Below, piece after piece: positions 7,050 through 41,986 of a stretch of 43,225 bases of DNA. The position numbers and the translations under genes are program-made. The DNA comes from an uncultured bacterium (lineage in GTDB: Bacteria; Hydrogenedentota; Hydrogenedentia; Hydrogenedentales; JAEUWI01), in contig CAXBPH010000017.1 of the NCBI GenBank assembly GCA_963977445.1, positions 1 through 43,225 on the forward strand. The letters run 5' to 3'. Under the pieces are notes generated by a model, which saw only the letters and a list, made by a program, of their open reading frames with translations, made no database searches and was not told the origin of the DNA. The stretch's first letter is position 1. Each line of letters begins with the position of its first letter.

Positions 7050-7343
7050 TGCAAGTTTCTCCGCTGAATATTTGGGGCTGGGAGGGGCGTTTTTGTGTTG
7101 CTGCGCTTTTGCGCCGTACGCCGTTCCACATAGTTCCGCTACTGCGCTCAGTCTAGCAGACGGCGGGCCATCGGGCAACGAAGAAATTACCCGTGAAGTG
7201 GGGGTGGTTATGGGGGGTATCGGGGCTCGGCGCTACCCACCCGCGCAACCTCCATTGTAGGGACGCTTGCGGGGTGCTATGATGGTTCCTCGCCGTAGAA
7301 CCAAAAGCGGCCTTGCCGCATGCTAAAACTATCAGGAGTGCCG

Positions 7344-10300: not shown

Positions 10301-10553
10301 GGTAGATGGTAGCGTAACCACGCAGCCGGAGTTTTCCTTCTGGTTTGACGACGTGGCCTGGGGCGTGGAGAACTATGGCACCGATCCCGACGTGGAAGTA
10401 TTTATAGCGCCCCAGGATTATAAGGCGGGACGGGATCCCCAGTTGGCCACCGGCCTGAAGGCCGTGTTGGATCTGATGAAAGCGAATCCGCCGAAGTTGC
10501 CGGAATTTCATACACGGCCATCGTTGAAGTTGCCTCGATTGCCCAAAGCATAA
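7344..10553 (+). CDS. Tricorn protease homolog (peptidase S41B)
   Basis: Beta-propeller repeats (PRFSPDG, WSPDGKW), GELGTSHAY, PDZ-like region, GYIHIPNM, DVRYNGGG, catalytic AGSDGD, GTRTWGG, ENYGTDPD; start set at ATG 7344 after CAGGAG. Confidence 0.95.
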   Translation: MIGYYRNPTIHQDTIVFCAEDDLWTVSRSGGIARRLTTSLGAVSTPRFSPDGTLLAFSGREDGAWEVYVMPAEGGPATRLTYQGVVAQVAGWSSDGKSIYYSSEATAPFAAARTLWSISPKGGDPVGLPWGPASHLSEGPGKTLVLGRNTGDPARWKRYRGGRAGQLWIDRNGDGEFERLTPVSGNVTSPMWIGKRIYFLSDHEGVGNLYSCTPTGKGLKRHTHGDEFYARGASTDGKAIIYHAGGNCYVYDLATDTATVVAISTPSPEVQRRRRFVPATSNLQGYGLRPDGKALAITARGKLFTMGNWEGPVLHHGQEAGSRARLSTWLNDGKRIVTVSDRSGEECLEIVDTTGKAKPKSLDKIVIGHAMGMTVSPKEDMAVVRNHRFELILADLKKGTGKCIDKSDFGPVSGATWSPDGKWIAYSYAETSRSRVIRLYHVATGKKHAVTRPEFTDVAPSWDPEGNFLYFISYRVYNPVYDALHFDLGFPQAMQLMVVPLRRDVASPFVARNDVAKVEPPKPDKKKTKEKPLKIDVAGLADRVIAFPKGAGRYGRIVGIKGKILYSQYAVKGTLVSHSPPPEDNHGTVYAYDLTTMKEETILTGVDSFSLSRDGSALLYRAGKRLRVVKAGEKPNEQKSTGMVKDGGRAQGWINLDRIQIAVDPPMEWRQMFREAWRLQRDYFWDEGMSGVDWKKVYNRYAPLLDRVGCRSELSDLMWEMQGELGTSHAYEVGGDYRHAPRVQQGKLGAELSWDQKRKGYRISAISQGDSWSEHRHSPLQAPAVNIGVGDVITAINGVALSPSVTPGHALANLGGQEVLLRVQPKTGASREAIVTTLRHEGALRYREWVNANREEVHKRSKGQVGYIHIPNMGAQGYAEFHRGWLPELHYPALIIDVRYNGGGHVSQLLLEKLARKRLGYDVSRWHAPEAYPRESVLGPMVALTNENAGSDGDIFSHCFKRMDLGPLIGTRTWGGVIGINPRTELVDGSVTTQPEFSFWFDDVAWGVENYGTDPDVEVFIAPQDYKAGRDPQLATGLKAVLDLMKANPPKLPEFHTRPSLKLPRLPKA

Positions 10554-13233: not shown

Positions 13234-15591
13234 TTGATGCGAAATTTAGTGAGCACGATGTGGTGTGTTGGCCTTTGCGCCATACCAATGTTCCTTCATG
13301 GGTGCGGGGCCTCCCCGGTGACTTCCCTGGCACCCGAGTTCCCAACGGAAGAAGAGGCTGTTACGTTCACGGATCCCCTTCCGGAAGCACCCACGGCTAT
13401 CGCCGATCTGGCTCCGCAGAAGATGGCGTTGCCTGCCTTCGTGAAAGACGAAAGTTGCCGGTCCTGTCACGAGACCCAGTTTGCCGATTGGCTGGGGTCG
13501 GACCACGAACGGGCCATGGACCATGCGACCCAGGCTACGGTGCTGGGCGATTTCAATGACGTAACCTTCAATCACTTTGACGAGCAATGGCGTTTTTTCA
13601 AAGAGGGCGAATCGTTCAAGGTGGGCTATCGCGCGGGTGCCGGGGAGGAAAAAATCTATACGGTGGAATACACTTTCGGCGTTCGGCCGCTCCAGCAATA
13701 CCTCGTGCCTTTCCCCGGGGGGCGCTATCAGTGCGTGCCGGTGGCGTGGGATGTGGCGAAGGCCCAGTGGTACCACCTTTATCCCGATGAGCCCATGCGT
13801 GAAGGGGATCCCATCCACTGGACGGGGCGCTTGCAGAATTGGAATTACATGTGTGCCGAGTGCCACAGCACGAATGTACAAAAGGGCTTTGACGACACGA
13901 CCAATACCTTTAAGACCACCTTCAGCGACATTAACGTGGGGTGTCAGTCGTGCCATGGGCCGGGCTCAACCCACGTGGACTGGGCCGCGTCGAAAACACT
14001 TTCCGAGGGTGGGGCCTACAACGCCCATGGGTTGGTGGTGGATTTCAAAGCGGGTGACGGGGCCTATCAGGTCGATCAGTGTGCCCGTTGCCATTCCCGT
14101 CGTTCCCCCGCCCGGGCGGAAGACAGCCATGAACACCCCTTTCTCGATAATTTTCAGCTCAGCACGCTGCAGGAAGATCTCTATTTTCCCGATGGTCAAA
14201 TCCATGATGAAGTCTATGTGTACGGCTCCTTCGTGCAAAGTCCCATGTATCACGCGGGCGTCCGTTGCACCGATTGCCATGATCCCCACAAGGCGGATCT
14301 GCTGGTGCCGGGCAATGACCTCTGCATCCGCTGCCACCAGAATGTGGCCTTGCCCCAGTTCCCTACGCTGAAGCCCGGCGTCTTTGATGACCCGTCCCAC
14401 CACTTTCACGAGGCCGGAACGCCGGGGGCAGAATGCGTGAATTGCCACATGCCCACGCGGACCTATATGGGTATCGACGTGCGACGGGACCATAGTTTTC
14501 GAATACCCCGTCCTGATCTCAGCGTTGCGTTGGGCACGCCCAATGCCTGCTCCCAGTGTCACACCGACAAAGAGGCCGCCTGGGCCCAGGAAGCCGTTGA
14601 AGGTTGGTATGGCAAAAAGACGCCCGAAGAAAACGTTCACTTTGCCACGGTGATCGCGGCGGGCCGTCGGGGCGACCCGGATGCCGAAGAAATGCTGTCG
14701 GCCCTGGCGCAAGATGGCGAAACACCGGCGATAGTTCGGGCGACGGCGATGGAGCTCTTGCAAAACTATGGTGGGCCTGGGGCGGCCGGTGCCCTGCTGG
14801 CGGGCTTGAAAGATCCGTCGGCCCAGGTGCGTGCCCAGGCGGTGGGGGGGATGGATCGTCTGCCCCCCGAGGCGCGGGGCGAGGTGCTGGGGCCTCTGGT
14901 CATGGATTCCATGGCATCGGTCCGGATTAGTGCGGCCCGGTTGCTGGTGGGTGCCCCGGGGCTGAATGCCGACGTCAATGATGCCCTGGCGGGTGCGGTG
15001 GAAGAATATACGGCCTTGCAACAATCGACCGGCGATCAGCCCGAGTCCCACTTGAATATGGCCTTGCTCTATACTGCGGAGGGGGCACTGGATAAGGCAG
15101 AGGCGGCCTATCGAAAGGCGATTGAACGGGATCCCCAATTTATTCCAGCCCGGGTAAATCTGGCGAACCTGCTGAATAGTCAGGGACGTAATCCGGAGGC
15201 GGAGCATCTGTTGAATGAGGCCCTCGGGCTGGCACCGCAGGAGGGAGAACTCCACTATTCTATGGGGCTCTTACTGGCGGAGTTGGGTCGCTTGGATGAG
15301 GCGCTCGTCTTTATGAAGCGGGCCACGGAGTTGATGCCGGAGCGTGGGCGGGTCTTTTATAACTACGGGCTGTTGCTGCAGCATGGGGAAAAGCGCGCGG
15401 CCGCAGAGCAGGCTCTGCTGGAAGCCCACCGTTTATCCCCCGGCGATGGCTCCGTGTTGCAGGCCCTCGTGATCTTCTATAGTCAGGAGGAGCGCTGGGA
15501 CGCAGCGAAGCCCTTTGCCCAGTCCCTCCTTGCCCTCGAACCCGACAATCCCCAATTGCAGGCGTGGGTGGCGGATATTCTCCGCCGATAA
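13234..15591 (+). CDS. Multiheme (8 CxxCH) cytochrome c with HEAT and TPR repeats, possible lipoprotein
   Basis: CRSCH, CAECH, CQSCH, CARCH, CTDCH, CIRCH, CVNCH, CSQCH; HEAT-like DPSAQVRAQAV; several TPRs; LHGC lipobox-like sequence. Confidence 0.9.
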   Translation: MMRNLVSTMWCVGLCAIPMFLHGCGASPVTSLAPEFPTEEEAVTFTDPLPEAPTAIADLAPQKMALPAFVKDESCRSCHETQFADWLGSDHERAMDHATQATVLGDFNDVTFNHFDEQWRFFKEGESFKVGYRAGAGEEKIYTVEYTFGVRPLQQYLVPFPGGRYQCVPVAWDVAKAQWYHLYPDEPMREGDPIHWTGRLQNWNYMCAECHSTNVQKGFDDTTNTFKTTFSDINVGCQSCHGPGSTHVDWAASKTLSEGGAYNAHGLVVDFKAGDGAYQVDQCARCHSRRSPARAEDSHEHPFLDNFQLSTLQEDLYFPDGQIHDEVYVYGSFVQSPMYHAGVRCTDCHDPHKADLLVPGNDLCIRCHQNVALPQFPTLKPGVFDDPSHHFHEAGTPGAECVNCHMPTRTYMGIDVRRDHSFRIPRPDLSVALGTPNACSQCHTDKEAAWAQEAVEGWYGKKTPEENVHFATVIAAGRRGDPDAEEMLSALAQDGETPAIVRATAMELLQNYGGPGAAGALLAGLKDPSAQVRAQAVGGMDRLPPEARGEVLGPLVMDSMASVRISAARLLVGAPGLNADVNDALAGAVEEYTALQQSTGDQPESHLNMALLYTAEGALDKAEAAYRKAIERDPQFIPARVNLANLLNSQGRNPEAEHLLNEALGLAPQEGELHYSMGLLLAELGRLDEALVFMKRATELMPERGRVFYNYGLLLQHGEKRAAAEQALLEAHRLSPGDGSVLQALVIFYSQEERWDAAKPFAQSLLALEPDNPQLQAWVADILRR

Positions 15592-18021: not shown

Positions 18022-21000
18022 ATGCGTAAATTCCACGGTGGTATGATTTGGCAGGCGTGGGGGGCTCCGATTGCCCGGGTGTTCATGCTTCTCACAAGTT
18101 TTGGCTTGTTTCTTAGTGCAGCTCATGGCGAGGTGTATGTTGTTGACTTCAACAACAATATCTGCACCAACAGATACGATTGCGGTGACGACCACGATGC
18201 CCAGCCGGGCGACGGTGTCGCCGAGCGTATCCTGGGCGGTGGTCAGACCACCTTTCGCTCGGCCATTGAAGAGTCCAATGAACTCGAGGGCCATGACTAT
18301 ATCATGCTGCCCAGTTTCGAGTTTTTCCTCCGGGTGGATCTGCCCCCCCTGACCGATCCCGCAGGCGTGACAATCATGTCCATGCAGGATGAGCAATATA
18401 TCCTTGACGGCACCGCCTTCGCACAGCGTCTGCGCGAGTACCGGGACCTGCTCGAGGAAAAATTTGATGATATAGACCTTGACGACAGCGACACGCTAAC
18501 TTTCGGAGAAACCGGCAATCTATTGCTTCGCGATGTGCGCAATATCATCCACAGCCAGGACGGAATGAGCCAGGCTGACTTTGATTATATGGATGCCAAT
18601 AGCAATGGTATCCTTACCCACACCGAACTCGAAGAATTTCGTGGAGCCGGTAGCGGAATTACCATCGCCTCGCCGAATAACAACATTCTCGACGTTACAA
18701 TTGTAAACTTCTATGGCCGGGGCATTATTGTTGATGGCGAAGACGCCGACGATAACGTTATTCAGGGCTGTAATATCGGCGTCTGGGGTACCGATGCGCA
18801 AGATCGGTCAAACGCACGTCGCGTTAGCGAAGACGCGTTTGAGGATGCAGACCTTGACAAGAACAACTTATTGAGCCTCATTGAGGCTCAGAGAGCGATT
18901 CCCGGGTTGACACAGGCAGCCTTCAATCGCCTGGATGAAGACAGAAGTGGCTCATTGACTCTTGCCGAGGTTAACGGAATAGCGGCACTCGTCGATACGG
19001 AATTGGCGATATTCATCCAAGACCAATTTGAACAGTTAGATCTCGACAACTCCAACTCTGTTTCCTTTGAGGAGCTTACCGCCGAACTTCCTGACATACC
19101 GCAATCCCAATTCAGCAGAATGGATCGCAACAACAGCGGGGTCCTGACGTTTGACGAACTGGACACGGTCATCGCGGATGGCGATATTTTTGGCGTAACC
19201 GGCACACTCAACCGCAACCGACAGCACGGTATCGTCGTGTCAGGTGGCGCGGACAATACTATCATCGGTGGCGCGGGCGAAGGCGAAGGAAACACCATCG
19301 CGGGCAATGGCTCGAACGATCTCTTTGAGATTCTCGACGTTGATGACAATGTCGTGGGATACAGTGCGCTGGACTTTGGTCACGGTATTCTGGTTTCGGG
19401 TGCAGGAACGACCAACACGAAAATCTACGGTAATTTTGTCGGCACCAATGTAAACGGGCGTGATCCAGTAGGCAATGGTTATTCCGGGATTGTCGTCGAA
19501 AATGGAGCAACCGACACGTCGATTGGTGGGGTGTTGCCAGGAGAAGGCAACGTTATCGACCACAACGGTGCTGCCATAGCTTGTCCGACCAATTGTGCTA
19601 ACGGCAGCCCGTCTTACTACGGTCGTGGCGTGATGATTTCAGGAGGTACGGCCACTAACAATGTGGTCCTGGGTAACGCCATATCGAGCAATGCAACATA
19701 CGGCGTCTATCTTCTTTCCGCAGATGGTGTCCAAATTGGCGGTGAACTCGAAGGTGCGGGCAATACGATAACGAAACACTTTGCAAGTAACCTGGGGGGC
19801 GGGAATATCGCAGTCTTTGGTGGGACCAATATCACCATTGCAGATAATATTTCTACCAACAGTACCAATGGACTCATCCTGGAGGGTGGAGCCAACATCT
19901 TCGTGGGCACTCCCGGATTCGGAAACGTGTTCTCTAGCTGTACCGTGGGAACATCGATATCGTCGTCAACCAACGTGTTCTATTACAGTAATCTTGTCGG
20001 TCCCGATGAGACGGGTACCCTCGCGCGGGCCAACAGTTATTCCGGCATCTATATACGAGGTGGTCTGTCAAACGTCCGCATCGGTGGTGCGGGCGCGGGA
20101 GAAGGAAATGTGATTTCCGGCAATATCAACGATGGCATCGTAATCTACGATATCGATGCTGGAGCGGGTGCCACACCGGATCTCTTCATCCAGGGCAATC
20201 GAATCGGAACAAACGCTGCCGGTACAGCCGCGTTGCCCAATAAGGTGATGGGTATTCTGGTCGGCCCCGATACCCGTAAAATTCTTATCGGCGGAACCGG
20301 CGCGGGAGAAGGTAATGTAATTTCCGGTAACAGTCGCGACGGTATCCGTGTCGCCCGTCGCTTAGACACGAACGAGACGCCGGATAATATTTCCATCTTC
20401 GGCAATGTTATCGGTCTGAATGCGGCAATGACAGCTCCGATACCGAACGCACTTAGCGGCGTCACCCTCCTCCAGGTCGATGAAGATGTGCGACTCGGCG
20501 GGCTTAATGCTGGCGAAGCAAACGTGATTGCCGGTAATACGGAGCACGGTGTACGGGTCAAAGGTGGCGTGCCCACGGATATCACCACCTTCTCAACGAT
20601 TCGCGGAAATTCGATCTATGGCAACGGCATGCGGGGCATCGGCCTCGAAGAAGGCGGCAATGGCGACATAGAAAAGCCTGTCATTCTGGGCGTAAGTCCC
20701 CTCAACGGTACGGCTCCTGCCGATAGCATTGTGGATGTCTATGCAGATACCGCTGATGAAGGCCGCTACTATCTGGGTGCGGCGGTTGCCGACGGGGCAG
20801 GCGTCTTTACGCTGATGGTTCCGTTGGAAAATGTACAGGCCAACAATTTGACGGCGACGGCCACCAATGCGACGACAGGAAGTACTTCTGAGTTTTCCGA
20901 TCCGTTGACGCTGGTTCCGCCGAGTATCGCTACGCCGCCTAATGGGCTAGCCGTGGTTGAGGGTGAGCCCTTCGGCCTTAGTGTGAGCGCCACGGGAACG

Positions 21001-24000
21001 TCGCCCATTACGTATCAATGGCAGTTCCTTCTCGATGGCGACAGTGAATATCTGGACGTGCCTGACGTAGCACCCTTCTCCGGCGCACAGACCAATACCC
21101 TGCTGTCGGCTGGTGCGCGCATATCGGATCAAGCGAAGTACCGCTGCGTTGCGACCAACTTGCTCGGCGATATCGAAAGCGCTTCGGCCACGGTGACCGT
21201 AGTTCCGCTATCGACCGACTTCGTTGCAGTCTCCCCAACGGCGACGGACAACGCGCCTCTTGATGGCACGGATGGCGATACGCAATCTATGGCCCACCTC
21301 ACCGCAGACCCGGGTGAAGACGGTGTTATTTCTCTCCGTGAAGCCATCACGGCTGCAAACAACCATGCAGGCGCAGACACCATAACCTTTACGACTGCCG
21401 GCACGGTTATGCTCGCAGCAGAACTTCCCGCACTCGAAGATGCAACTGGTGGTACTACTATCGACGGTGCTGGCGAAATTGTATTGGACGGTGATGACCT
21501 TTCCGGCAGCGAGTCGGGCCTGCTCATTACTTCTGCCGCCAACGTGCTGAAAGGCCTGAGTGTCGTCAATATGCCGGCAAACGGTATTGATATCTCTGGG
21601 GCCGACGCTACGTCCAACGTTATCACCGCATGTTTCCTTGGTGTTGACGGGGCAAACGGCGCCAACGGTGTTGAAATCCGGGATGGTGCCAGTGATAACA
21701 CTGTCGGTGGTGTCATGGCGGGCGAAGGCAACATTATCTCCGGCAATACGGAAAGCGGTGTTGCGCTCGCAGGCGAGAATACGACCGGCAACCTGGTACT
21801 CGGTAACTTTATCGGAACCGATGCGACGGGCGACGTATCTGAGGCCAACGGCACACACGGTGTGTTGATAGAGGATATGGCGTCGGAAAATGAGGTCGGT
21901 GGTGATGAAGCTGGCGAAGGCAATACCATCGCCTTCAACACCGGCTCTGGTGTCTACATCGTGGATGCTGGCACGACCGGCAATACGGTTTCCGGAAACG
22001 ATATACTGGATAATACGATCAACGGCGTTGCCGTCCTGGATGGCGCGACCGACACGTTCATCGGTGGTCTCACCGAAAATACGGGCAACCGCATTGAAGG
22101 TAATGGAGTAGGTGTACTTTTCGATGGTGCCGCCACTTTGGGCAACACCATTCGAGGAAACAGCATTACAGCAAACGTTGGTGATGGCATTGTTCTTACC
22201 AACGGTGCCAATGAGGCAATTGCGTCGCCGGAAATTGCGGCGATCGGTTCCGTTATCGGCACGGCACCAGCAAACAGTACGGTCGAAATTTTCGTTGACT
22301 CCAGCGATGAAGGTGACCAACTGATTGCAACCATCGTCGTCGGTGGCGACGGAAATTTTGAGAGCAGCGTTGATGTAGAGCCATTCTTTGGTTCCAACAT
22401 AACGGCCACGGCGACCGATGGAGCCGGAAATACTTCCGCCTTCAGCGCGCCTTTCGTACTCGATTTTACCCCGCCCGTGCTCAGCTTGATCGGCGCGATG
22501 GAGATTGTTGTGGAGTGTGGTTCCGGCACCTACGTGGATGCCGGCGCGACCGCCCTGGACAATGTCGATGGCGATATCACGAGTGAGATTGTCGTCACCA
22601 TCATGCAAGGCGCTACCGTCATCGCTGAAATTGACGGTACCGCGACGGGCACCTACACGATTACCTATGAAGTCTCCGACGCAGTCGGTCTTGCGGCCGA
22701 CCCCATCACCCGCACGGTGACGGTGGCAGACTCAACGGCACCGACCATCACACTTACCGGTGCCAGTTCGACGATCGTCGAATGCAGCACGGAATACGTA
22801 GATGCTGGCGCGACGGCCACCGACGGCTGTGACGGCGATTTGGCCGTAGTGGTGAACAACCTGGTAGATACCAGCCAGCCTGGTGTATACACGGTCACCT
22901 ACAGCACGACGGACGGCAGCGGAAACGCCGCCGTAAACGTAGTGCGCACGGTTACGGTCCGCGATACCAGCGTTCCGACCCTCACCTTGCTGGGTGACGC
23001 CATGCTTACGTTGGAGTGCAGCACAGAACTTGTCTACGAAGATGCGGGCGCAACTATCACAGACAGCTGCGATGCCGAGCCCACCTTGGCCGTGACCAAC
23101 CCGGTTAACCCCGGCAAGGTTGGCACCTACACCATTCGTTACAACGGCACCGATGCCTCGGGCAATGCCGCGAATCAGATCATTCGGATTGTCGAAGTGG
23201 TGGATACCACGGCTCCGGTAATCACCCTCAATGGTAACGCCGAAGTTGACGTTACGTGTGGTAGCGTCTACGGTGAAGAAGACGCTACGGCTGAGGACGA
23301 TTGCGGTGGTACATTGGCCGTGACCATTTCCGGCTCGGTCGACACGGGAAATCCGGGGGAATATATTCTGACCTACACGGCCGTTGACGTTGAAGGCAAT
23401 GCAGCGACCCCGGTGACGCGTACAGTACGTGTGGCTGACAGCGGCTTGCCAACGATTCAGTTGATTGGTTCGGCCTCGGTTAGCGTAGCCTGCAACAGTG
23501 TCTACGAAGAACTGGGTGCAACCGCGAGCGACACATGCAGTAATGACATATCCGATTCACTGGTAATCTCTGGCAGCGTTGACACAGAATCAGCGGGTGA
23601 CTACGTCATCAACTATGACGTGACCGACAGCCTGGGTAATGTAGCCACACGGGTAAGCCGCACCGTTACGGTCACGGCTTGTCCCGAGCCTTGTGACATA
23701 CAGTGTGAAAATGATCCCGGTGACAAGATAGATGCCGACGGTGACGGACTTTCCGCCTGTGTCGAAGCCTGCCTTGGCACCAGTGACAACGAGATCGATT
23801 CTGATGCCGACGGCGTTCCAGACGGGGTAGAAGCAACGACGGGAACGGATCCGGCAAATGCGGATTCGGACCTCGACCTCGACGGTGATGGTTTGAGTGC
23901 ACTGGAAGAGTTTGTCTTCAGTTCGGACCCGTTGAATGCGGATAGTCCGGCACAGTCCTTCTTCATCGCATCGAACGGCGCGAATTCAGTAAACGGCGGT

Positions 24001-25101
24001 TCTGCGGGAACACCGTGGAACTCCATCAGCTTTGCTCTTTCGCAAGTCACGCCAACGGCCAACAGCCCGGTACGTCTCATTGTTGGGCCGGGTAACTATG
24101 CCGAAGATGTGGAGCTTAAGTCCTGGGTCACCCTGGTGGGTGCGACGGGCAGCCTGCCCCGCATTGAAGGTACGGTGTTTGGCGCAAATAACAGTACACT
24201 GGATAACGTGGAAATCGCGGCCTTCAGCAGCGACGACGTCATGTTGGTCATGGATAATGTCAAGATGAACGTGCTGAACGTGGTGTTCCGTGGTTCCGCG
24301 GCACGACCGGCTGCTGGCGCACTCGTAGATGGTGCAGCGAGTGCGGCGTCCGTCTTCGACGGTTGCCTGTTTGACAGTTTGTCTGTTGGCGTAGACGTGG
24401 GCGGTGCGTTGCCGATGATTCGTCGGTGCACCTTCATGAACACGAGTATTGCCGGCGTATTTGTTCGCTCGACGGCGAGTATCACCGGTGGTGTATCGCT
24501 GGGCCGAGTTAATGATGCGGGTACCGGTTCAAATTTGTTTGCTGGTATCGACGAAGGTCGTGCGATTATCAATGAGCTGGTGTCCCTCCTTACTGCCGAG
24601 CAGAATGAATGGGGCACGACGGACCTCGTTGCCATTGGAGACACGCTGGTATCCGGTCTGGTGGACTTCGATCCGGTGCTTGCTTCCGGTGCAGCGTCTG
24701 ATACCGCCAGCCTCTATATAACCGTTTGGACGGCCACAAGTCAGGCACGGATTTCCACCGCGAGTGTGACCGTGAGCGGTGCCGGCACCAATACGACGGT
24801 AACCAGTAATAGCAATGGCGTGTATGCCCTTCCGGTGCTTCGCAGCGGAACCTATAGCATCACCGTCGCTGCCCTTGGTTTCGAAGATAAGAGCACGACC
24901 GTTACGCTTACCGCGGAACAGTTGGGCTCGAAGACGGTAGCCCTTACCGGACTCGTCGAAAAGGGTGGTGGTCCCAGCTGTGCACCGGGCGTATCGGGCA
25001 CGGGCCTGTGGAGCGATCTACTGCTCGCGGTGCTGCTGCTCGTCGGGCTTACCTGCGGACGTGAGATTGTCGGCAAGTTGGGCAAGATTGCCCGCCACTA
25101 A
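18022..25101 (+). CDS. Giant secreted/surface protein (2359 aa): CSLREA-like, 6 EF-hands, parallel beta-helices, Ig domain, 5 DUF5011-like repeats, DxDxDG Ca-binding repeats, DUF1565-like, carboxypeptidase-regulatory-like, C-terminal TM anchor
   Basis: Signal peptide (..LSAAHG-E); GNVISGN/GNFIGT repeats; ISLREAITAAN; ATGTSPITYQWQ; DxxxPxIxLxG repeats; DADGDGL; hydrophobic tail. Confidence 0.9.
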   Translation: MRKFHGGMIWQAWGAPIARVFMLLTSFGLFLSAAHGEVYVVDFNNNICTNRYDCGDDHDAQPGDGVAERILGGGQTTFRSAIEESNELEGHDYIMLPSFEFFLRVDLPPLTDPAGVTIMSMQDEQYILDGTAFAQRLREYRDLLEEKFDDIDLDDSDTLTFGETGNLLLRDVRNIIHSQDGMSQADFDYMDANSNGILTHTELEEFRGAGSGITIASPNNNILDVTIVNFYGRGIIVDGEDADDNVIQGCNIGVWGTDAQDRSNARRVSEDAFEDADLDKNNLLSLIEAQRAIPGLTQAAFNRLDEDRSGSLTLAEVNGIAALVDTELAIFIQDQFEQLDLDNSNSVSFEELTAELPDIPQSQFSRMDRNNSGVLTFDELDTVIADGDIFGVTGTLNRNRQHGIVVSGGADNTIIGGAGEGEGNTIAGNGSNDLFEILDVDDNVVGYSALDFGHGILVSGAGTTNTKIYGNFVGTNVNGRDPVGNGYSGIVVENGATDTSIGGVLPGEGNVIDHNGAAIACPTNCANGSPSYYGRGVMISGGTATNNVVLGNAISSNATYGVYLLSADGVQIGGELEGAGNTITKHFASNLGGGNIAVFGGTNITIADNISTNSTNGLILEGGANIFVGTPGFGNVFSSCTVGTSISSSTNVFYYSNLVGPDETGTLARANSYSGIYIRGGLSNVRIGGAGAGEGNVISGNINDGIVIYDIDAGAGATPDLFIQGNRIGTNAAGTAALPNKVMGILVGPDTRKILIGGTGAGEGNVISGNSRDGIRVARRLDTNETPDNISIFGNVIGLNAAMTAPIPNALSGVTLLQVDEDVRLGGLNAGEANVIAGNTEHGVRVKGGVPTDITTFSTIRGNSIYGNGMRGIGLEEGGNGDIEKPVILGVSPLNGTAPADSIVDVYADTADEGRYYLGAAVADGAGVFTLMVPLENVQANNLTATATNATTGSTSEFSDPLTLVPPSIATPPNGLAVVEGEPFGLSVSATGTSPITYQWQFLLDGDSEYLDVPDVAPFSGAQTNTLLSAGARISDQAKYRCVATNLLGDIESASATVTVVPLSTDFVAVSPTATDNAPLDGTDGDTQSMAHLTADPGEDGVISLREAITAANNHAGADTITFTTAGTVMLAAELPALEDATGGTTIDGAGEIVLDGDDLSGSESGLLITSAANVLKGLSVVNMPANGIDISGADATSNVITACFLGVDGANGANGVEIRDGASDNTVGGVMAGEGNIISGNTESGVALAGENTTGNLVLGNFIGTDATGDVSEANGTHGVLIEDMASENEVGGDEAGEGNTIAFNTGSGVYIVDAGTTGNTVSGNDILDNTINGVAVLDGATDTFIGGLTENTGNRIEGNGVGVLFDGAATLGNTIRGNSITANVGDGIVLTNGANEAIASPEIAAIGSVIGTAPANSTVEIFVDSSDEGDQLIATIVVGGDGNFESSVDVEPFFGSNITATATDGAGNTSAFSAPFVLDFTPPVLSLIGAMEIVVECGSGTYVDAGATALDNVDGDITSEIVVTIMQGATVIAEIDGTATGTYTITYEVSDAVGLAADPITRTVTVADSTAPTITLTGASSTIVECSTEYVDAGATATDGCDGDLAVVVNNLVDTSQPGVYTVTYSTTDGSGNAAVNVVRTVTVRDTSVPTLTLLGDAMLTLECSTELVYEDAGATITDSCDAEPTLAVTNPVNPGKVGTYTIRYNGTDASGNAANQIIRIVEVVDTTAPVITLNGNAEVDVTCGSVYGEEDATAEDDCGGTLAVTISGSVDTGNPGEYILTYTAVDVEGNAATPVTRTVRVADSGLPTIQLIGSASVSVACNSVYEELGATASDTCSNDISDSLVISGSVDTESAGDYVINYDVTDSLGNVATRVSRTVTVTACPEPCDIQCENDPGDKIDADGDGLSACVEACLGTSDNEIDSDADGVPDGVEATTGTDPANADSDLDLDGDGLSALEEFVFSSDPLNADSPAQSFFIASNGANSVNGGSAGTPWNSISFALSQVTPTANSPVRLIVGPGNYAEDVELKSWVTLVGATGSLPRIEGTVFGANNSTLDNVEIAAFSSDDVMLVMDNVKMNVLNVVFRGSAARPAAGALVDGAASAASVFDGCLFDSLSVGVDVGGALPMIRRCTFMNTSIAGVFVRSTASITGGVSLGRVNDAGTGSNLFAGIDEGRAIINELVSLLTAEQNEWGTTDLVAIGDTLVSGLVDFDPVLASGAASDTASLYITVWTATSQARISTASVTVSGAGTNTTVTSNSNGVYALPVLRSGTYSITVAALGFEDKSTTVTLTAEQLGSKTVALTGLVEKGGGPSCAPGVSGTGLWSDLLLAVLLLVGLTCGREIVGKLGKIARH

Positions 25102-25168: not shown

Positions 25169-25378
25169 TGTAGGCTGCGATTCGCCGCCCCGCCCGTCCA
25201 CGTGACGCTTTCGGTGTTCGTTGTCAGGGTATGTGTGTCTCTTGCATTTTCAGATTTTGGTGTATAATCGTAAGAGGGAATGTGGGAATCGACGCAGGGC
25301 GATTCCTTTGGTGATGTAAAGTCAGTTCGAAATTGAGGAACCGTGCCAACTCGTGTGGCACAGAAGGCGGGATCACAA

Positions 25379-28300
25379 ATGAAGCTCATCTTGCGTAATA
25401 CGCATGTTGCCATGGTACTTCTGGTTTGCTTTTTTACGGCCATGGACAGCCACGGAGCCCAGAAAGGTATCACCATCATCGAAGTGACAACCACCGCTGA
25501 TGTGGTAGACGGTGATGTAAGCTCCATTGCTGCCTTGCAGGGAACTCCGGGCAACGACGGAAGTATTTCGCTCCGTGAAGCCATAACAGCGAGCAACAAT
25601 ACGGTGGGAGAGGAAACAATTACTTTTTCCACGCTCGGCGAGTACCTTGTAGAGACGGCCCTTCCAGAAATGGGACTCTCTTCGGGAGGCACGACCATCG
25701 ACGGCGGTGGCCGCCTTATCCTGGTCAACGGCACGGGCGACCCGGCAGTCGATGGCTTTCTCATCACAACGGGAAGCAATACGATTTCCGGTGTGACCAT
25801 TCGTGGTTTTCAGGCGGCAATTCGCCTATCCGGGCCCGACGCAATCGGAAATTTGATCACCGGAAGCATTCTGGGAAATCTGGATGTCAAAAAGGATACT
25901 AAGGGGGCAGTGAACCTGTTCAATCAGTATGGCGTGGCCATCGATACCGGGGCATCTTTCAACGTAGTTGGCGGGCAACTCACTGAAGAACGGAATGTGA
26001 TATCGCGAAACCTCGTCGCGGGTATTCTTGTTGCAGGAATGTGTGACGGGAACACTATCCGTGGAAACTTCATCGGTACCAACGTCGCAGGGGACGCGGC
26101 CATTCCGAACGTGGTGGGCGTCCTCGTGGATGGGGCCAGCAATACCGTCGTGGGCAGCAATACCGGCGCGGGCGGAAATTTGTTGTCTGGCAACTCAAGC
26201 GCGGGCATCGAGATTAAAGGCAATGCCACGGGGACGAAAATAGAAGGCAATACCATCGGACTCGCCCTCAACGCGACCGCATCCCTTCCCAACGGCCAGG
26301 GCATCTATATTGACGGAACGGGGGGAGCCAACGGTACCACCATCGGATCCACCGTGTTCTTCGGTCGCAACGTTATCGCGGGCAACCTGAATGAAGGTAT
26401 CGTGCTCCTGGCGACGTCAGGCAACTCGATCTTCAATAATTACATCGGTCTGGATTTTAATTTTGGAAATGAAACCCCCAACGGTGCTTCGGGGATTGTG
26501 ATTCTCGGTGGCGCCAGCAACAACCTGATCGGCAACGGGAACTTTTCGGGGCGCAACACGATAGCCTATAACGGCGGCGATGGAATACGGATTGATGGAG
26601 GCGCCACGCTCGCCAACGCAATCCAGAGCAACTCTTTGTTCGATAACGTTGGTCTCGGTATTCGCCTGGACAATGGTGCCAATGGCGGAATCGCGCCTCC
26701 ATCGATTGATAAGCTCCTTTCCGGCCAGGCAATTACGGGGCAGACCGTACCCAACGGCTCGGTGGAAATTTTTACGGGTACGGACGAAGAAGGCGAAACT
26801 TTGTTTGAGCGGGTCGTGGCAGATCCCAATGGCGGGTTCACGACGATCAGAACGTTGTTCAATAGCGATACGGAGATGTTGACGGCAACGGTAACAGACA
26901 CTTCCCTGAACACGTCGGCCTTCAGTGCGCCCCTGTTTACCCCCATTTTCTTTACGGGCGACCCGCAACAACTTTTTGTACTGATTCTGGATGGTGATGC
27001 GGATGGCGATGGTCAATTGGACCCGTCCGAATTCTTACGGGCGACCGGGCGTGATATGGCGACCTTTAATTCAGCTGATTTGGACTCCAATGGCCTTGTG
27101 ACCTATTACGAGCTGCTCGAGCTCTCCCTACGTGAAAACGACGTATCAACCGTCACGGTCGATACCCTTAGCGATGTTGTTGACGCCCCCAGCACGAGCT
27201 CTACCGGCACCCTGATTAATGCGCCGGGTAATGACGGAAAGATTTCATTGCGGGAAGCGCTCGAAGCGATTCAGATGGCGAGTAATGTAAAAATCGATGT
27301 TGCTGTGACGGGTACCATACTTCTCGATAGTGCCTTGCCACCGATTGCTGCTCCTGGCAATCGAATCTATATACGGGGCAATGGAGGCGTAGTGATCGAC
27401 GGAACGAATCTGAGCAATGGAGAAAGCGGATTTACGATCATGGCGACCAATATCATGATCGAAGGGTTCCAGTTGATAAACTTTCCGGGATCGGGTGTGC
27501 TCTTGAGTGGTTTGGATGCGCAAGAATGTGAAATCTTTTCCAGCCAAATTGGAACGGATGGCAGCAGCGCCAAGGGCAACGACGGGGCCGGCATCAAAAT
27601 TGAAGATGGTGCACAGTCCAACGTGGTGGGCGGTCCCTTTGGCGACCTGAAGAATATCATTTCCGGTAACGCCATAGGAATCCATATAGACGGATCCACC
27701 TCCAATGGCAATGTGATTTACAACAACCTGATCGGCGTCGCCGGGTCCGGTATGACAGCGATACCCAATACCTCGGATGGCATCAAAATCAGCGGCGGCT
27801 CGTCGGGCAATTTACTTCTGGGGGTCCAGTCCGATGGCCTGGGATTGCTGATATCTGGTAACGGTAACGGCACCGGCGATGGAGGTGTTTCCATTGGCGG
27901 TAATTCTACCAACACCATCCTACTCGGGTGTGCCATTGGCCTGAACGCGAACGGGGAGCCGAATCTTGGTAACAATCCCCATGGTATCCGACTTTTCGAC
28001 GGTGCCAGCAGAACGATTGTGGGTATCTTCGGGACGGAACCTCCAATCGCAATCGGCAATAGTGACGTCAAAGGGGTCTATTCCACGCTGAAAAATTCAA
28101 AAGGGCAATTCAATCCCGCAGGCCTGTATCAGCTAAATACGATTGGCGGTAACGTAGGTGACGGTGTTCAAATCGACGGCGCCTTGACGGTCGGGAACAG
28201 GCTCTTGGGCAATTCGATCGCTCACAATGGCGGAAACGCGGTGCGCCTCTTGAATGGAGCCAATGGGGGCATTTCTCCTCCCGTCATTACCGAGGTCACC

Positions 28301-30055
28301 CCTACGATGGTATCGGGGCAGTCGCTGCCAAACAGCATGATATTGCTCTATGGCGATGACGAAGACGAAGCCGAATTCCCGTTGCTTTCGACATTCGCCG
28401 ATTCAGACGGAATCTGGCGGGTAGCGTTTTCCAAGGGTTCTCCCCCGTCGTTTTTAAATTACACCGCATTGCAGTTGGACGGAGAATTGGGTAACACATC
28501 AGCACTAAGTGCGGCTGTGCCGGTCGGTTCCGTCGGTGGTGAGGGTGAAGGTGAGGGCGAAGGGGAATGCACGGATACGGAAACCGATTCGGATGGGGAT
28601 GGTGCTTCCGATTGTGAAGAGATGGCGTCGGGCACGGATCCCAACAAACCCGATAGCGATAACGATGGGATGGCCGATGGTTTTGAAATCCGCTTTGGTT
28701 TGAACCCACTCTCTCCCATGGAAAGTCCAGACACCTTCCTCGATTTGGATGGCGACGGCCTGAGCAACCTGGAAGAATTCTTCGGAAATACCAATCCCGC
28801 TGATCCTGCCGATCCGGGCATGGCGTTGTATGTAAATCAGGAAACGGGTATGGACCTGTCGACCAATGGCGGCGTGGACAATCCCATTCGTACGCTCGAC
28901 TTCGCGCTGGACCTTGCTGCGGCGGCCGAAGGTGGCGTGAAACGCATCCTGCTTGCGGCGGGCACCTACATGGGCAATGTGGCCCTGGTCGCCAATGTAA
29001 CCGTCATCGGACCTGCCTTCAACGGCGAAAAGGGACCGGTAGCAACGGCCGTGATTGTCGGCTCCGTGATGGGTGCTGACAATGCCACCTTGTCTGATGT
29101 GGACATAGTGACCTCGGCGAACGTGGGCACCTTGTTGAACCTCAGCAGTAGTGGCATGGTTGCCCGACGGGTGCGATTCTTCGGCGATTCGAATAATCGT
29201 GGTGCCACCGGCATCCTCGCGCAGGGTAGCTCGGCGGCTTCGGGGGTGGTCGACAGTTGTGACTTCGTCGATCTTGGTATCGGCATCGATATCACCGGTG
29301 GCGTTCCGACCATTCGCAAATCGATTTTTATCGATCCATCGGTGGCGGGTATCTACGTCCGTTCGACCGCCACGGTAGATGGAACGAGTGGCCTGAGCGC
29401 CTCTACCGATGCAACGAGCGGGTTCAATACCTTCACGTTTACGGCAGAGGGCGGGATAGCAGCAGAAGACCGTGCGGCCGTCGTAAACGAGACGGGCGAT
29501 GCATTGCGGATGGAAAATAACGACTGGGGCACCGACGACGATGGGGAAGTCGATGCCCTCATCTCGGGCGCGGCTGATTTCCTGCCTAAGCTGGTCAAGG
29601 GATCAGCCATCCTCGCTTCGAGTCTGTTTTGCACGCTCTTTGATGATGGCGATCAGAAACGTCTGACCACCGCTTCCGTAACGCTCCAGGGCAGCGGATT
29701 TGGTCCAATGTCGGACAATGAGTTGGGCGTCTATGCCTTCCCGGCGGTATTGGCGGGCGGCTACGATGTGCTTTGTGAGTCCAACGGCTATTCCAACGCG
29801 AATGTTGGTGTAGACGTAGGCGCAGGTCAGATTAAATCCGTGGTCGTGCCCATGGGTCAGCAGCTTGGCGGTGAAGGGGAAGGCGAGGGCGAAGGTGAGG
29901 GTGAAGGAGAAGGCGAAGGACCCAAAGAGCCTGGCATGGTTTGCGCACCGACGTCGCCAACGGGCTCCAGTCTCTGGAGTGATCTTCTTCTCATGGCGGG
30001 TGTGCTGTCGCTACTCGTGATGGTGGGACGACGTTCTGCGCGGATGTCTTCGTAA
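25379..30055 (+). CDS. Giant secreted/surface protein, paralog of the upstream gene: CSLREA-like x2, beta-helices, 2 EF-hands, GE linkers, DxDxDG repeats, DUF1565-like, C-terminal TM anchor
   Basis: Signal peptide (..MDSHG-A); ISLREAITASN; NVISRN/GNFIGT repeats; DADGDGQLDPSE and DLDSNGLVTYYE; alternative GTG start at 25343. Confidence 0.9.
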   Translation: MKLILRNTHVAMVLLVCFFTAMDSHGAQKGITIIEVTTTADVVDGDVSSIAALQGTPGNDGSISLREAITASNNTVGEETITFSTLGEYLVETALPEMGLSSGGTTIDGGGRLILVNGTGDPAVDGFLITTGSNTISGVTIRGFQAAIRLSGPDAIGNLITGSILGNLDVKKDTKGAVNLFNQYGVAIDTGASFNVVGGQLTEERNVISRNLVAGILVAGMCDGNTIRGNFIGTNVAGDAAIPNVVGVLVDGASNTVVGSNTGAGGNLLSGNSSAGIEIKGNATGTKIEGNTIGLALNATASLPNGQGIYIDGTGGANGTTIGSTVFFGRNVIAGNLNEGIVLLATSGNSIFNNYIGLDFNFGNETPNGASGIVILGGASNNLIGNGNFSGRNTIAYNGGDGIRIDGGATLANAIQSNSLFDNVGLGIRLDNGANGGIAPPSIDKLLSGQAITGQTVPNGSVEIFTGTDEEGETLFERVVADPNGGFTTIRTLFNSDTEMLTATVTDTSLNTSAFSAPLFTPIFFTGDPQQLFVLILDGDADGDGQLDPSEFLRATGRDMATFNSADLDSNGLVTYYELLELSLRENDVSTVTVDTLSDVVDAPSTSSTGTLINAPGNDGKISLREALEAIQMASNVKIDVAVTGTILLDSALPPIAAPGNRIYIRGNGGVVIDGTNLSNGESGFTIMATNIMIEGFQLINFPGSGVLLSGLDAQECEIFSSQIGTDGSSAKGNDGAGIKIEDGAQSNVVGGPFGDLKNIISGNAIGIHIDGSTSNGNVIYNNLIGVAGSGMTAIPNTSDGIKISGGSSGNLLLGVQSDGLGLLISGNGNGTGDGGVSIGGNSTNTILLGCAIGLNANGEPNLGNNPHGIRLFDGASRTIVGIFGTEPPIAIGNSDVKGVYSTLKNSKGQFNPAGLYQLNTIGGNVGDGVQIDGALTVGNRLLGNSIAHNGGNAVRLLNGANGGISPPVITEVTPTMVSGQSLPNSMILLYGDDEDEAEFPLLSTFADSDGIWRVAFSKGSPPSFLNYTALQLDGELGNTSALSAAVPVGSVGGEGEGEGEGECTDTETDSDGDGASDCEEMASGTDPNKPDSDNDGMADGFEIRFGLNPLSPMESPDTFLDLDGDGLSNLEEFFGNTNPADPADPGMALYVNQETGMDLSTNGGVDNPIRTLDFALDLAAAAEGGVKRILLAAGTYMGNVALVANVTVIGPAFNGEKGPVATAVIVGSVMGADNATLSDVDIVTSANVGTLLNLSSSGMVARRVRFFGDSNNRGATGILAQGSSAASGVVDSCDFVDLGIGIDITGGVPTIRKSIFIDPSVAGIYVRSTATVDGTSGLSASTDATSGFNTFTFTAEGGIAAEDRAAVVNETGDALRMENNDWGTDDDGEVDALISGAADFLPKLVKGSAILASSLFCTLFDDGDQKRLTTASVTLQGSGFGPMSDNELGVYAFPAVLAGGYDVLCESNGYSNANVGVDVGAGQIKSVVVPMGQQLGGEGEGEGEGEGEGEGEGPKEPGMVCAPTSPTGSSLWSDLLLMAGVLSLLVMVGRRSARMSS

Positions 30056-32470: not shown

Positions 32471-33481
32471 ATGGCACCAGAGATGCTCTTTGTCATCGGG
32501 GCACCTCGATCCGGCACCACCATGCTGGAGCACATGTTAAGTGCCCATGACGCGATTGAAGGGGGGCCGGAGCCCCATCTGTTGACGCCCCTGGCCCATC
32601 TGGGTGTATGGGACATGGTGGACAAAGCGCCCTACGACCATGTCCTTGCTGCTGAATCACAGAAGCTCTTTGTGTCGAAACTTCCCAATGGCAAAGCGGA
32701 TTATTGGGCGGCCTGCCGCGCCTACTGCGATGTGCTCTATGGGGCGTTTATGACGGGACGGTCGGGGCGCCTCTGTCTCGACAAGACGCCCGCCTACGCG
32801 TTGGTCCTGCCGTTTATGATGCGGGTGTTTCCTGACGCCCGTTACGTGGTACTTACCCGCCATCCACTGGCGATGTTTTCCTCCTTCGCCAATTCTTTTT
32901 TTGATGGCGATTACGAAGCGGCCCATCGCTACAACCCCGTGCTGGAGCGTTACATCCCCGCAATGGCGACTTTTCTGCGGCAGACCGATGTGCCCTTCAT
33001 TCACGTGCGCTATGAGGACCTGGTGGCGTCGCCCGAATTGGAATTTGAGAAGATTTGCACCTTCATCGGTGTTTCCAACGATGGGGACGCGGTGAATTAT
33101 GGCGAAAAATCGGGTGGGGCCGTAGCGGAAGGCCTCGGTGATCCGCTGGGAGTCCAGCAGCATACCCGTCCGTCTACCGCATCTCTCGATAAGTGGGTCG
33201 GTGAGCTTGCCCACGATGAAGGGAAGCGTTCGTTGATGGAATCCATGATTGCGAAACTCGATCCCGCTGATCTCGCGGTGTTGGGCTATCCGACGGAACA
33301 GCTCTGGGATGGGTTGGCCGCGGGCGCTTCACTCAATCCTCCCCGCCGCCCCCGACTCAGTCGCTATCGACTACAACGTCGGGCGATCCTGGTGTTGCGT
33401 GGGCGAGCCCAACGCCACCCCGGTTTTCGGGCATTGCTGAAGAAAATTCGCCTCGCGTGCGATGTGTTGACGCGCGAGTAG
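32471..33481 (+). CDS. PAPS-dependent sulfotransferase family protein
   Basis: 5'-PSB GAPRSGTTML, DKTP, 3'-PB RHPLAMFSS, VRYEDLV. Confidence 0.9.
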   Translation: MAPEMLFVIGAPRSGTTMLEHMLSAHDAIEGGPEPHLLTPLAHLGVWDMVDKAPYDHVLAAESQKLFVSKLPNGKADYWAACRAYCDVLYGAFMTGRSGRLCLDKTPAYALVLPFMMRVFPDARYVVLTRHPLAMFSSFANSFFDGDYEAAHRYNPVLERYIPAMATFLRQTDVPFIHVRYEDLVASPELEFEKICTFIGVSNDGDAVNYGEKSGGAVAEGLGDPLGVQQHTRPSTASLDKWVGELAHDEGKRSLMESMIAKLDPADLAVLGYPTEQLWDGLAAGASLNPPRRPRLSRYRLQRRAILVLRGRAQRHPGFRALLKKIRLACDVLTRE

Positions 33482-41236: not shown

Positions 41237-41986
41237 ATGGACGTGTCGAAACGCAAGAACGCTTTGCTGTATACCGACGGCCTGGAAAAATCTTTCAAAA
41301 AGCGAAAGGTGGTCCGGGGGGTTTCTATTGCCGTGAATCCTGGCGAAGTCGTGGGCCTGCTGGGTCCCAACGGGGCCGGTAAGACGACAACCTTCAGCAT
41401 GACCGTGGGGCTGCTACGTCCAGACAGTGGCACGATTCATTATGACGGAAAAGACGTCACGCGCTTGCCCATGTACCAGCGGGCTCAGCTTGGGATTGCC
41501 TATCTTCCCCAGGAGCCCTCGGTGTTCCGGCAGCTCACCGTTCGGCAAAATGTCCTCGCAATCCTGGAGTACCAGAAGCTGACAAAAAGGGAGCGTGAGG
41601 GCCGTGCCGATGCCTTGCTCGATGAGCTCAATATCTCACACCTCGCCGATAGTCCGGCCTACACCCTTTCCGGTGGCGAGCGCCGTCGCACGGAAATTGC
41701 CCGTGCCCTCGTCACCAACCCGAAGGTATTCCTGTTGGATGAGCCTTTTGCGGGGATTGACCCGATAGCCGTGGCCGATCTACAGGATATGATGGCCCAG
41801 TTGAAGGAAAAGGGCATCGGCGTGTTGATTACCGATCACAATGTGCGGGAAACCCTGGGCATATCGGATCGGGCCTATATTATTATTGAGGGGCAGGTCC
41901 AGGTATCGGGGACCCCCGAGGATATTGCGAAGGATCCCACAGCGCGAAAGTATTATCTGGGCGAGCGTTTCCAGATGACGTCTTGA
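41237..41986 (+). CDS. lptB: LPS export ABC transporter ATP-binding protein
   Basis: GPNGAGKTT, YLPQEPSVF, LSGGERRR, LLDEPFAGIDP, ITDHNVRETL, YLGERF. Confidence 0.97.
   Translation: MDVSKRKNALLYTDGLEKSFKKRKVVRGVSIAVNPGEVVGLLGPNGAGKTTTFSMTVGLLRPDSGTIHYDGKDVTRLPMYQRAQLGIAYLPQEPSVFRQLTVRQNVLAILEYQKLTKREREGRADALLDELNISHLADSPAYTLSGGERRRTEIARALVTNPKVFLLDEPFAGIDPIAVADLQDMMAQLKEKGIGVLITDHNVRETLGISDRAYIIIEGQVQVSGTPEDIAKDPTARKYYLGERFQMTS

Follow-up and report, generated by a model that had tools for sequence, protein, structure and literature searches.

How are the large secreted proteins of a bacterium sorted to their destination when their ends carry none of the catalogued sorting signals? This question is raised by a 43,225-nucleotide stretch of DNA from an uncultured member of the Hydrogenedentota (assembly GCA_963977445.1, contig CAXBPH010000017.1, positions 1 to 43,225, forward strand; hereafter, the window), in which two neighbouring genes encode secreted proteins with similar C-terminal tails. 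To our knowledge, the phylum has no well-studied cultured member, and its large adhesin-like proteins are mostly annotated as hypothetical. A sequence-only reading of the window had proposed that the two ends, which share a CAP..G..LWSDLLL motif, carry a new C-terminal protein-sorting signal. Judged from their sequences, both tails are diverged short-spacer members of a Hydrogenedentota-wide tail family. The tail is most likely an uncatalogued surface-sorting tag of the phylum, and we consider it rather probable that it is a recognised sorting or anchoring signal.

Anatomy, carriers and spread of the tail

At the end of both genes, Cys-Ala-Pro and a Gly/Ser spacer lead into LWSDLLL, after which come a hydrophobic helix and a basic stretch, just as the sequence-only reading had described. 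The features of the pair are as follows.

18022..25101, + strand: gene 1, secreted multidomain protein with tail copy 1, 2359 aa
18022..18129, + strand: signal-peptide-like N-terminus of gene 1, residues 1-36 (...LSAAHG/E), from sequence reading and a hydrophobicity heuristic, not SignalP
24964..25101, + strand: tail copy 1, from GGGPS to the stop codon, exactly the span flagged by the sequence-only reading
24979..24981, + strand: Cys of tail 1, invariant across the family
24982..25014, + strand: short, Gly/Ser-rich spacer of tail 1, 11 residues
25015..25017, + strand: Asp heading the helix of tail 1, near-invariant in the family
25018..25059, + strand: hydrophobic helix of tail 1, LLLAVLLLVGLTCG
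25060..25098, + strand: basic C-terminal end of tail 1, REIVGKLGKIARH, longer and with fewer Arg than the family norm
25343..30055, + strand: gene 2, secreted paralogue with tail copy 2, 1570 aa
29870..29920, + strand: (Gly-Glu)n linker preceding tail 2, the usual preface of the family within the genus
29942..30055, + strand: tail copy 2 (Cys 29942-29944, Asp 29981-29983, helix 29984-30028, basic end 30029-30052, stop)

The C-terminus of gene 1 reads GGGPS-C-APGVSGTG-LWSDLLL-AVLLLVGLTCG-REIVGKLGKIARH, and that of gene 2 reads (GE)n-PKEPGMV-C-APTSPTGSS-LWSDLLL-MAGVLSLLVMVG-RRSARMSS. Gene 1 contains EF-hands, beta-helix, Ig-like, five Bact_surface_Ig-like, TSP3 and CarboxypepD_reg domains, and gene 2 contains beta-helix, EF-hand, TSP3 and CarboxypepD_reg-like domains. 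The ATG at 25379, upstream of a signal-peptide-like helix, is the likelier start of gene 2. The two genes are paralogues with 34% identity across their last ~490 residues, so that the remainder of the proteins is more diverged than the shared 7-mer. Copy 1 spells LWSDLLL as ctg tgg agc gat cta ctg ctc, and copy 2 spells it as ctc tgg agt gat ctt ctt ctc, with synonymous differences at four of the seven codons. Both of these points had been made in the sequence-only reading.

The family was built stepwise, from a survey of open reading frames (ORFs) ending in a helix and basic residues and then by two rounds of profile search over all ORF ends, and 30 tails were found in this genome (E<1e-3). 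In these tails a Cys is followed, after 11-20 residues, by [G/S/A]-Asp, which heads a membrane helix, and basic residues close the tail. When 29 tails were aligned, all shared the Cys and at least 90% had the Asp; the same held for 45 tails including those of other genomes. The long form reads G-C(-x-C)-x-K-S, about ten residues, and then L-G-D-L-F-L-x-G-L-A-L. In the short form, 11-17 spacer residues rich in Gly, Ser and Pro lead to [G/S]-D-[L/M]-L-[L/V], and the Asp is invariant in this subtype. The window tails scored 47.5 and 43.3 bits on the short-spacer profile, values that are not independent because both tails sat in its seed. Since the looser profile retrieves 30 tails in the genome and the two genes are paralogues, the tail common to them is, by sequence comparison, inherited and not a chance match.

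Across the genus the two genes are kept as a tandem pair. Its orthologues keep the Cys and the Asp, while the remaining tail residues turn over; the site of LWSDLLL is occupied by VTDLTL, LGDLLV, WGDLSL, WGDLAL, AGDLLL, GSDMLL, PSDLLV, LSDLLV, LSDLLM or LSDFLV. Because orthologues elsewhere in the genus keep just these two residues, the alignments identify Cys and Asp as the signature and W, S and CAP as local detail. The signature first proposed, CAP..G..LWSDLLL, is therefore not the conserved one: its Cys and its Asp stand, and its W and S, which the sequence-only reading had stressed, vary. A strict W-[ST]-D-hydrophobic motif near ORF ends occurred, among the real large ORFs of the genome, in only the two window genes; it was dropped as the conserved unit because it matched these two tails alone.

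A profile of the tail had been expected to match at C-termini only, and this is what was observed. The long-form profile gave 102 matches (E<=1e-3) in a library of 1.84 billion cluster representatives, all of which end within 10 residues of the C-terminus (102/102); of these matches, 52 come from fragments of less than 130 aa. When the six-frame ORFs of this genome were scanned at full length, all 29 matches ended within 7 residues of a stop and none was internal; this is a weak control, because the matches are largely the seed sequences of the profile itself.

The carriers are diverse. Among 15 full-length carriers, the Pfam content comprised BACON with InlB repeats, DM13, EF-hands, beta-helix with NosD, CAP, PKD with PMP repeats, FG-GAP, Ig-like domains, or no Pfam domain at all. 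Signal-peptide-like starts, scored with a simple hydrophobicity heuristic and not SignalP, were seen in 12 of the 17 member ORFs of at least 250 aa; of the remaining five, two are truncated at a contig end. One tail is thus carried by otherwise unrelated proteins, most of them with signal-peptide-like starts. It sits at the extreme C-terminus and joins a short signature around an invariant Cys to a membrane helix followed by a basic cluster; Cys-type tripartite signals require both such carriers and this layout. Half of the tail ORFs (15/30) reach a contig end (e.g., G000:C10:3-191, C84:25027-25218 and C292:8516-8695, G000 being this genome), evidently because the (Gly-Glu)n linkers before the tails break the assembly. 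The same breaks account for the truncation of many carrier genes in this and related draft genomes.

Two further observations concern the sequences that precede the tails. Many long-form tails directly follow an EF-hand/dockerin-like loop, D-x-D/N-x-D-G-x-L-x-x-x-E-L (proteins P0004-P0104; G032 loci L071-L080). The CarboxypepD_reg-like domain just before tail 1 (window 24802-24990) weakly matches the model of the anammox S-layer glycoprotein Kustd1514 (23 bits, cut-off 1400), and such a domain also precedes tails in genome G091 and in several paralogues.

Confinement of the motif to the two paralogues would have argued against a sorting signal, and the tail was found well beyond them. Matches were obtained in 29 of 41 relatives, and all eight sister genomes of the genus had 16-37 matches each. 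In a survey of 126 genomes of the phylum, each at least 80% complete, tails were found in 77 (the union of 56 with the long profile and 70 with the short profile). Tails read from families f3, f5, f7, f10, f11, f12 and f13, including families with few matches, were genuine. The range beyond the phylum was judged from the organism names of cluster members alone: in 20 clusters examined, all seven members with an organism name were Candidatus Hydrogenedentes, Hydrogenedentota or Hydrogenedens. The product names in these clusters were "hypothetical", "PASTA", "WD40" and "DUF5011", and never a CTERM name.

Relation to catalogued C-terminal signals

The sequence-only reading knew of no sorting signal that the motif matched. 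To compare the tail with catalogued signals, the two window tails and 28 further tails were scanned against NCBIfam (E<=10), and none of the 30 reached the cut-off of any CTERM model. The LPXTG anchor model (TIGR01167) gave at best 14.8 bits (cut-off 15.9), on the helix only and in one of the 28 tails. MYXO-CTERM (TIGR03901) matched one tail at 9.2 bits (cut-off 20) and the other 29 of 30 not at all, and VPDSG-CTERM matched one tail at 11.6 bits (cut-off 22). NF058595, a C-terminal anchoring domain named "lipo-invert", matched one of the 28 tails at 6.7 bits (cut-off 37); a literature search on this name found no paper. No PEP motif and no match to PEP-CTERM (TIGR02595) was seen among the 30 tails. 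The same model works in this genome, where 21 other ORFs match it as an ordinary, separate set. GlyGly-CTERM likewise matched none of the 30, and the two rhomboids of the genome scored 40 and 28 bits on the rhombosortase model TIGR03902 (cut-off 84).

The kind of signal is nevertheless a known one. In a preprint, Haft describes four Cys-containing tripartite signals that pair with CPBP proteases (10.1101/2023.06.07.544157), and MrtX is reported to cleave MYXO-CTERM in a Cys-dependent manner (PMC11980579). The Hydrogenedentota tail resembles the MYXO-CTERM/myxosortase system of Myxococcota (MrtX/MrtC/MrtP) in having a tripartite, extreme C-terminal tail with an invariant Cys, a membrane helix and a basic end. 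The Cys of MYXO-CTERM often lies in GCGC, and a tail from family f11 of the Hydrogenedentota has GCGCGC. Both systems have dozens of unrelated secreted carriers per genome, a diderm host with type II secretion-type secretins, and carrier genes unlinked to the enzyme gene. Unlike the Cys of MYXO-CTERM, which adjoins the helix, that of the Hydrogenedentota tail lies 12-20 residues from it. A near-invariant Asp heads the helix here, whereas the helix region of MYXO-CTERM contains no charged or Pro residue, as the preprint describes (10.1101/2023.06.07.544157). The two also belong to different phyla, and no CPBP here reaches a myxosortase-type model.

The JDVT-CTERM/MrtJ system of Pseudomonadota offers a second comparison. 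The same preprint describes an Asp-Pro nine residues past the Cys, inside the helix, and typically one carrier per genome, adjoining its protease (10.1101/2023.06.07.544157). In both systems a single Cys is followed at a distance by a conserved Asp tied to the helix, and MrtJ and MrtS are the NCBIfam models that the small CPBPs here match best, though weakly; on the MrtJ model, the CPBPs scored 21-27 bits (cut-off 75). Unlike JDVT-CTERM so described, the Hydrogenedentota tail has no Pro, has variable spacing, and occurs on up to 37 carriers per genome, none of them beside a protease. With PEP-CTERM/exosortase, the tail shares an acidic residue at the outer edge of the C-terminal helix and many carriers in diderms, and this genome has the exosortase family. 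It differs from PEP-CTERM in its extra invariant Cys and in the existence of a tail-bearing genome without an exosortase.

A search of the literature on Hydrogenedentota with CTERM, exosortase or sortase, which did not extend to the species tables of the Haft preprint, found no description of the tail. It is best read as a family of a known kind, the Cys-containing tripartite C-terminal signals exemplified by MYXO-CTERM, and it stands apart from them in its Cys-helix spacing, its Asp-headed helix and its lack of a model match.

Possible processing of the tail

By analogy with MYXO-CTERM and myxosortase, the carrier would be exported by Sec, and the tail helix would hold it in the inner membrane with the basic end on the cytoplasmic side. 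This would place the Cys at the membrane surface, where it would then be modified, probably by lipidation; a housekeeping intramembrane protease would cut off the helix, and the mature protein would be handed to the cell surface, probably via a type II secretion system. The sequence-only reading had taken lpt genes as a sign of a diderm, and one such gene is indeed present in the window:

41237..41986, + strand: LptB, lipopolysaccharide (LPS) export ATPase (TIGR04406, 359 bits, cut-off 240), context supporting an outer membrane

Secretin homologues are present in the genome, and together with LptB they fit a diderm with type II-like secretion. If one enzyme family had to be named, our choice for the protease would be the glutamic intramembrane proteases of the CPBP (Rce1-like) family, since all four known Cys-containing signals have partners of that family. 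The least unlikely paralogues would be the stand-alone L046-type and the L042-type described below. Processing of the tail by a CPBP is a tentative proposal.

No sortase-like gene was found within the window, in agreement with the sequence-only reading. The genome inventory comprised six CPBP-family genes, two rhomboids and three exosortase-family genes (one XrtA-like), none of which shares a contig with a tail gene. The neighbourhoods inspected, namely the window and those of the L042-type CPBP (nine genomes), the L051-type exosortase (five) and the L046-type protein (three), contained housekeeping or unrelated genes, and no tail gene lay beside these enzymes. Other genes of the window were ordinary-looking and unrelated to the tails: a tricorn-type protease (7320-10553; PD40, PDZ, S41), a multihaem cytochrome fused to TPR/HEAT repeats (13234-15591) and a sulfotransferase (32471-33481). 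Elsewhere in the genome, an 895-aa ORF ending in PAVPEPEEW, a helix and a basic tail directly precedes a divergent 528-aa exosortase, XrtT/XrtQ-like and below cut-offs (G000:C62:12312-16504, locus L050); these two genes are probably a dedicated exosortase-substrate pair.

The sequence-only reading had suggested profiling the tail against protease families. Presence and absence of CPBP and exosortase genes were compared with those of the tail over 41 and then 126 genomes, related genomes not being independent. The L042-type small CPBP (G000:C86:15432-16097) scored 256-305 bits in this genus and one sister genus and at most 59 bits elsewhere, and the genomes that have it are those richest in tails. 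The L044-type CPBP, a single-copy gene, was found in 113 of 126 genomes. In this genome it belongs to an operon (G000:C32:29400-35487; locus L143:1401-7488) whose other ORFs are those of a 41-aa "MKH..." peptide, two GNAT acetyltransferases, an ABC ATPase, a membrane protein and a 648-aa product with no Pfam match; two response regulators follow. The L046-type (G000:C58:26208-26957, locus L144) is a stand-alone 250-aa membrane protein with the CPBP motif variants E-x-x-x-R, H and H-x-x-x-E, found in 109 of 126 genomes with uninformative neighbours. The L051-type exosortase (G000:C48:25743-26690; with its membrane domain, to 27196) occurs in 105 of 126 genomes, keeps Cys, Arg and His, and falls below the XrtH cut-off. 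Its extra membrane domain of ~190 aa forms one protein with it in most families but is split from it in this genus (also loci L122-L126). Given as genomes with both, tail only, enzyme only and neither, the counts were 75/2/38/11 for the L044-type, 74/3/35/14 for the L046-type and 71/6/34/15 for the L051-type. Neither a CPBP nor the orphan exosortase was singled out. A complex prediction with the L042-type CPBP, the L051-type exosortase and the tail scored 0.00, which speaks neither for nor against binding.

Clades without tails were also compared. All nine f3 genomes without tails are without the L044-type, and eight of the nine are without the L046-type. The joint absence of tail and L044-type had been taken as a signal; this was withdrawn because the L046-type is missing in eight of these genomes too and the L044-type belongs to the peptide operon. 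In genus g61, all eight genomes are without tails and without the L051-type exosortase. A low-stringency search (E<=0.5) of three g61 and two f3 genomes gave no convincing tail, so that neither clade breaks the tie among the candidate enzymes.

Several results weigh against a sorting signal processed by a CPBP. The cut-offs of the Mrt sorting-protease models were reached by none of the six CPBPs. The L042-type is present in just 10 of 41 relatives though tails are phylum-wide, and there are tail-rich f11 genomes without it. Membership of a peptide/GNAT/ABC-exporter operon explains the distribution of the L044-type, and the L046-type is marginally CPBP-like (19-21 bits against a Pfam CPBP cut-off of 22.4). 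Between 35 and 38 genomes have an L044- or L046-type enzyme and no detected tail. None of the three CPBP subfamilies profiled follows the tail better than the unrelated exosortase does, and no paralogue stands out. As for the tail itself, MYXO-CTERM helices carry no charge and this helix is headed by Asp, so recognition may differ. The window tails are the weakest members on the long-type profile (26 and 19 bits), and the basic end of tail 1 is atypical. Cleavage, lipidation at the Cys and surface location are carried over from MYXO-CTERM by analogy.

It is possible, if doubtful, that the distal Cys and the Asp-headed helix form a two-part signal, and that the enzyme, or pair of enzymes, that recognises it has so far had no known role in protein sorting. 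That role might fall to the divergent L046-type CPBP-like protein, or to a CPBP working jointly with the orphan exosortase and its additional membrane domain.

Alternatively, the tail could be a plain, unprocessed anchor, in which the helix tethers the protein to the inner membrane, the Cys serves for a disulfide or for nothing special, and the module has been shuffled among surface-protein genes. Profiling tied no processing enzyme to the tail, no neighbourhood links a tail gene to a protease, and the end of tail 1 is long and weakly basic. An invariant Cys and a near-invariant Asp throughout the phylum, amid free turnover of their neighbours, are however not expected of a mere anchor. Giant adhesin-like proteins (Ig, PKD, beta-helix, TSP3) in an LPS-bearing diderm would moreover be stuck in the periplasm, and the well-studied tails of such architecture are all processed. 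We therefore regard a plain anchor as unlikely.

The tail could instead be the substrate of the L051-type exosortase, which would cut at the Asp-headed helix as exosortases do at PEP, possibly with a CPBP as in the fused XrtE exosortase/protease. NCBIfam does contain a fused exosortase/CPBP model (TIGR04162), and the L051-type is widespread with its Cys, Arg and His residues kept. It is an orphan, being the sole exosortase-family gene in five tail-bearing genomes (G026, G033, G039, G074 and G025) that have no PEP-CTERM match, compared with 21 in the control G000, and so no known substrate there. The absence of both exosortase and tails from genus g61 (8/8, of which three were inspected at E<=0.5 without a convincing tail) points the same way. 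However, a genuine tail is present in G091 (97% complete, 10 contigs), where nothing at all matched the exosortase family; G004 (95% complete, 60 contigs) lacks an L051-type match despite its 22 long-type and 10 short-type tail matches; and 34 genomes have the enzyme and no detected tail. The exosortase signals known to us have Pro-containing motifs and no Cys, which also counts against this explanation. Taken together, it is improbable.

That the exact LWSDLLL/CAP motif is a signal of its own, separate from the phylum-wide tail, is hardly credible: the 7-mer is identical in the two paralogues despite four synonymous codon differences and is unique in the genome, but the orthologues of both genes in seven sister genomes have not kept it, and both tails align with the family profiles and score on them (the 47.5 and 43.3 bits from tails in the seed, hence non-independent).

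The tail and the surface proteome of Hydrogenedentota

What this analysis adds is the division into a long and a short subtype, the orthologue comparison from which Cys and Asp emerged as the signature, the counts across the phylum, and an enzyme profiling that came out negative. The (Gly-Glu)n linkers before the tails explain why carrier genes break short-read assemblies. As a surface-sorting tag, the tail would be the fifth Cys-type signal beside the four that Haft describes. With its distant Cys and charged helix head, it offers a natural way to probe which features Cys-type sorting enzymes recognise, and to ask whether lipidation of a C-terminal Cys is general. A profile of the tail would flag the surface proteome of Hydrogenedentota in one pass, with up to 37 proteins per genome and 102 clusters at the strict threshold. 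If the reading of the tail as a two-part signal is true, it would mean a new pairing of signal and sortase that governs the surface proteome of a whole phylum without a cultured member.

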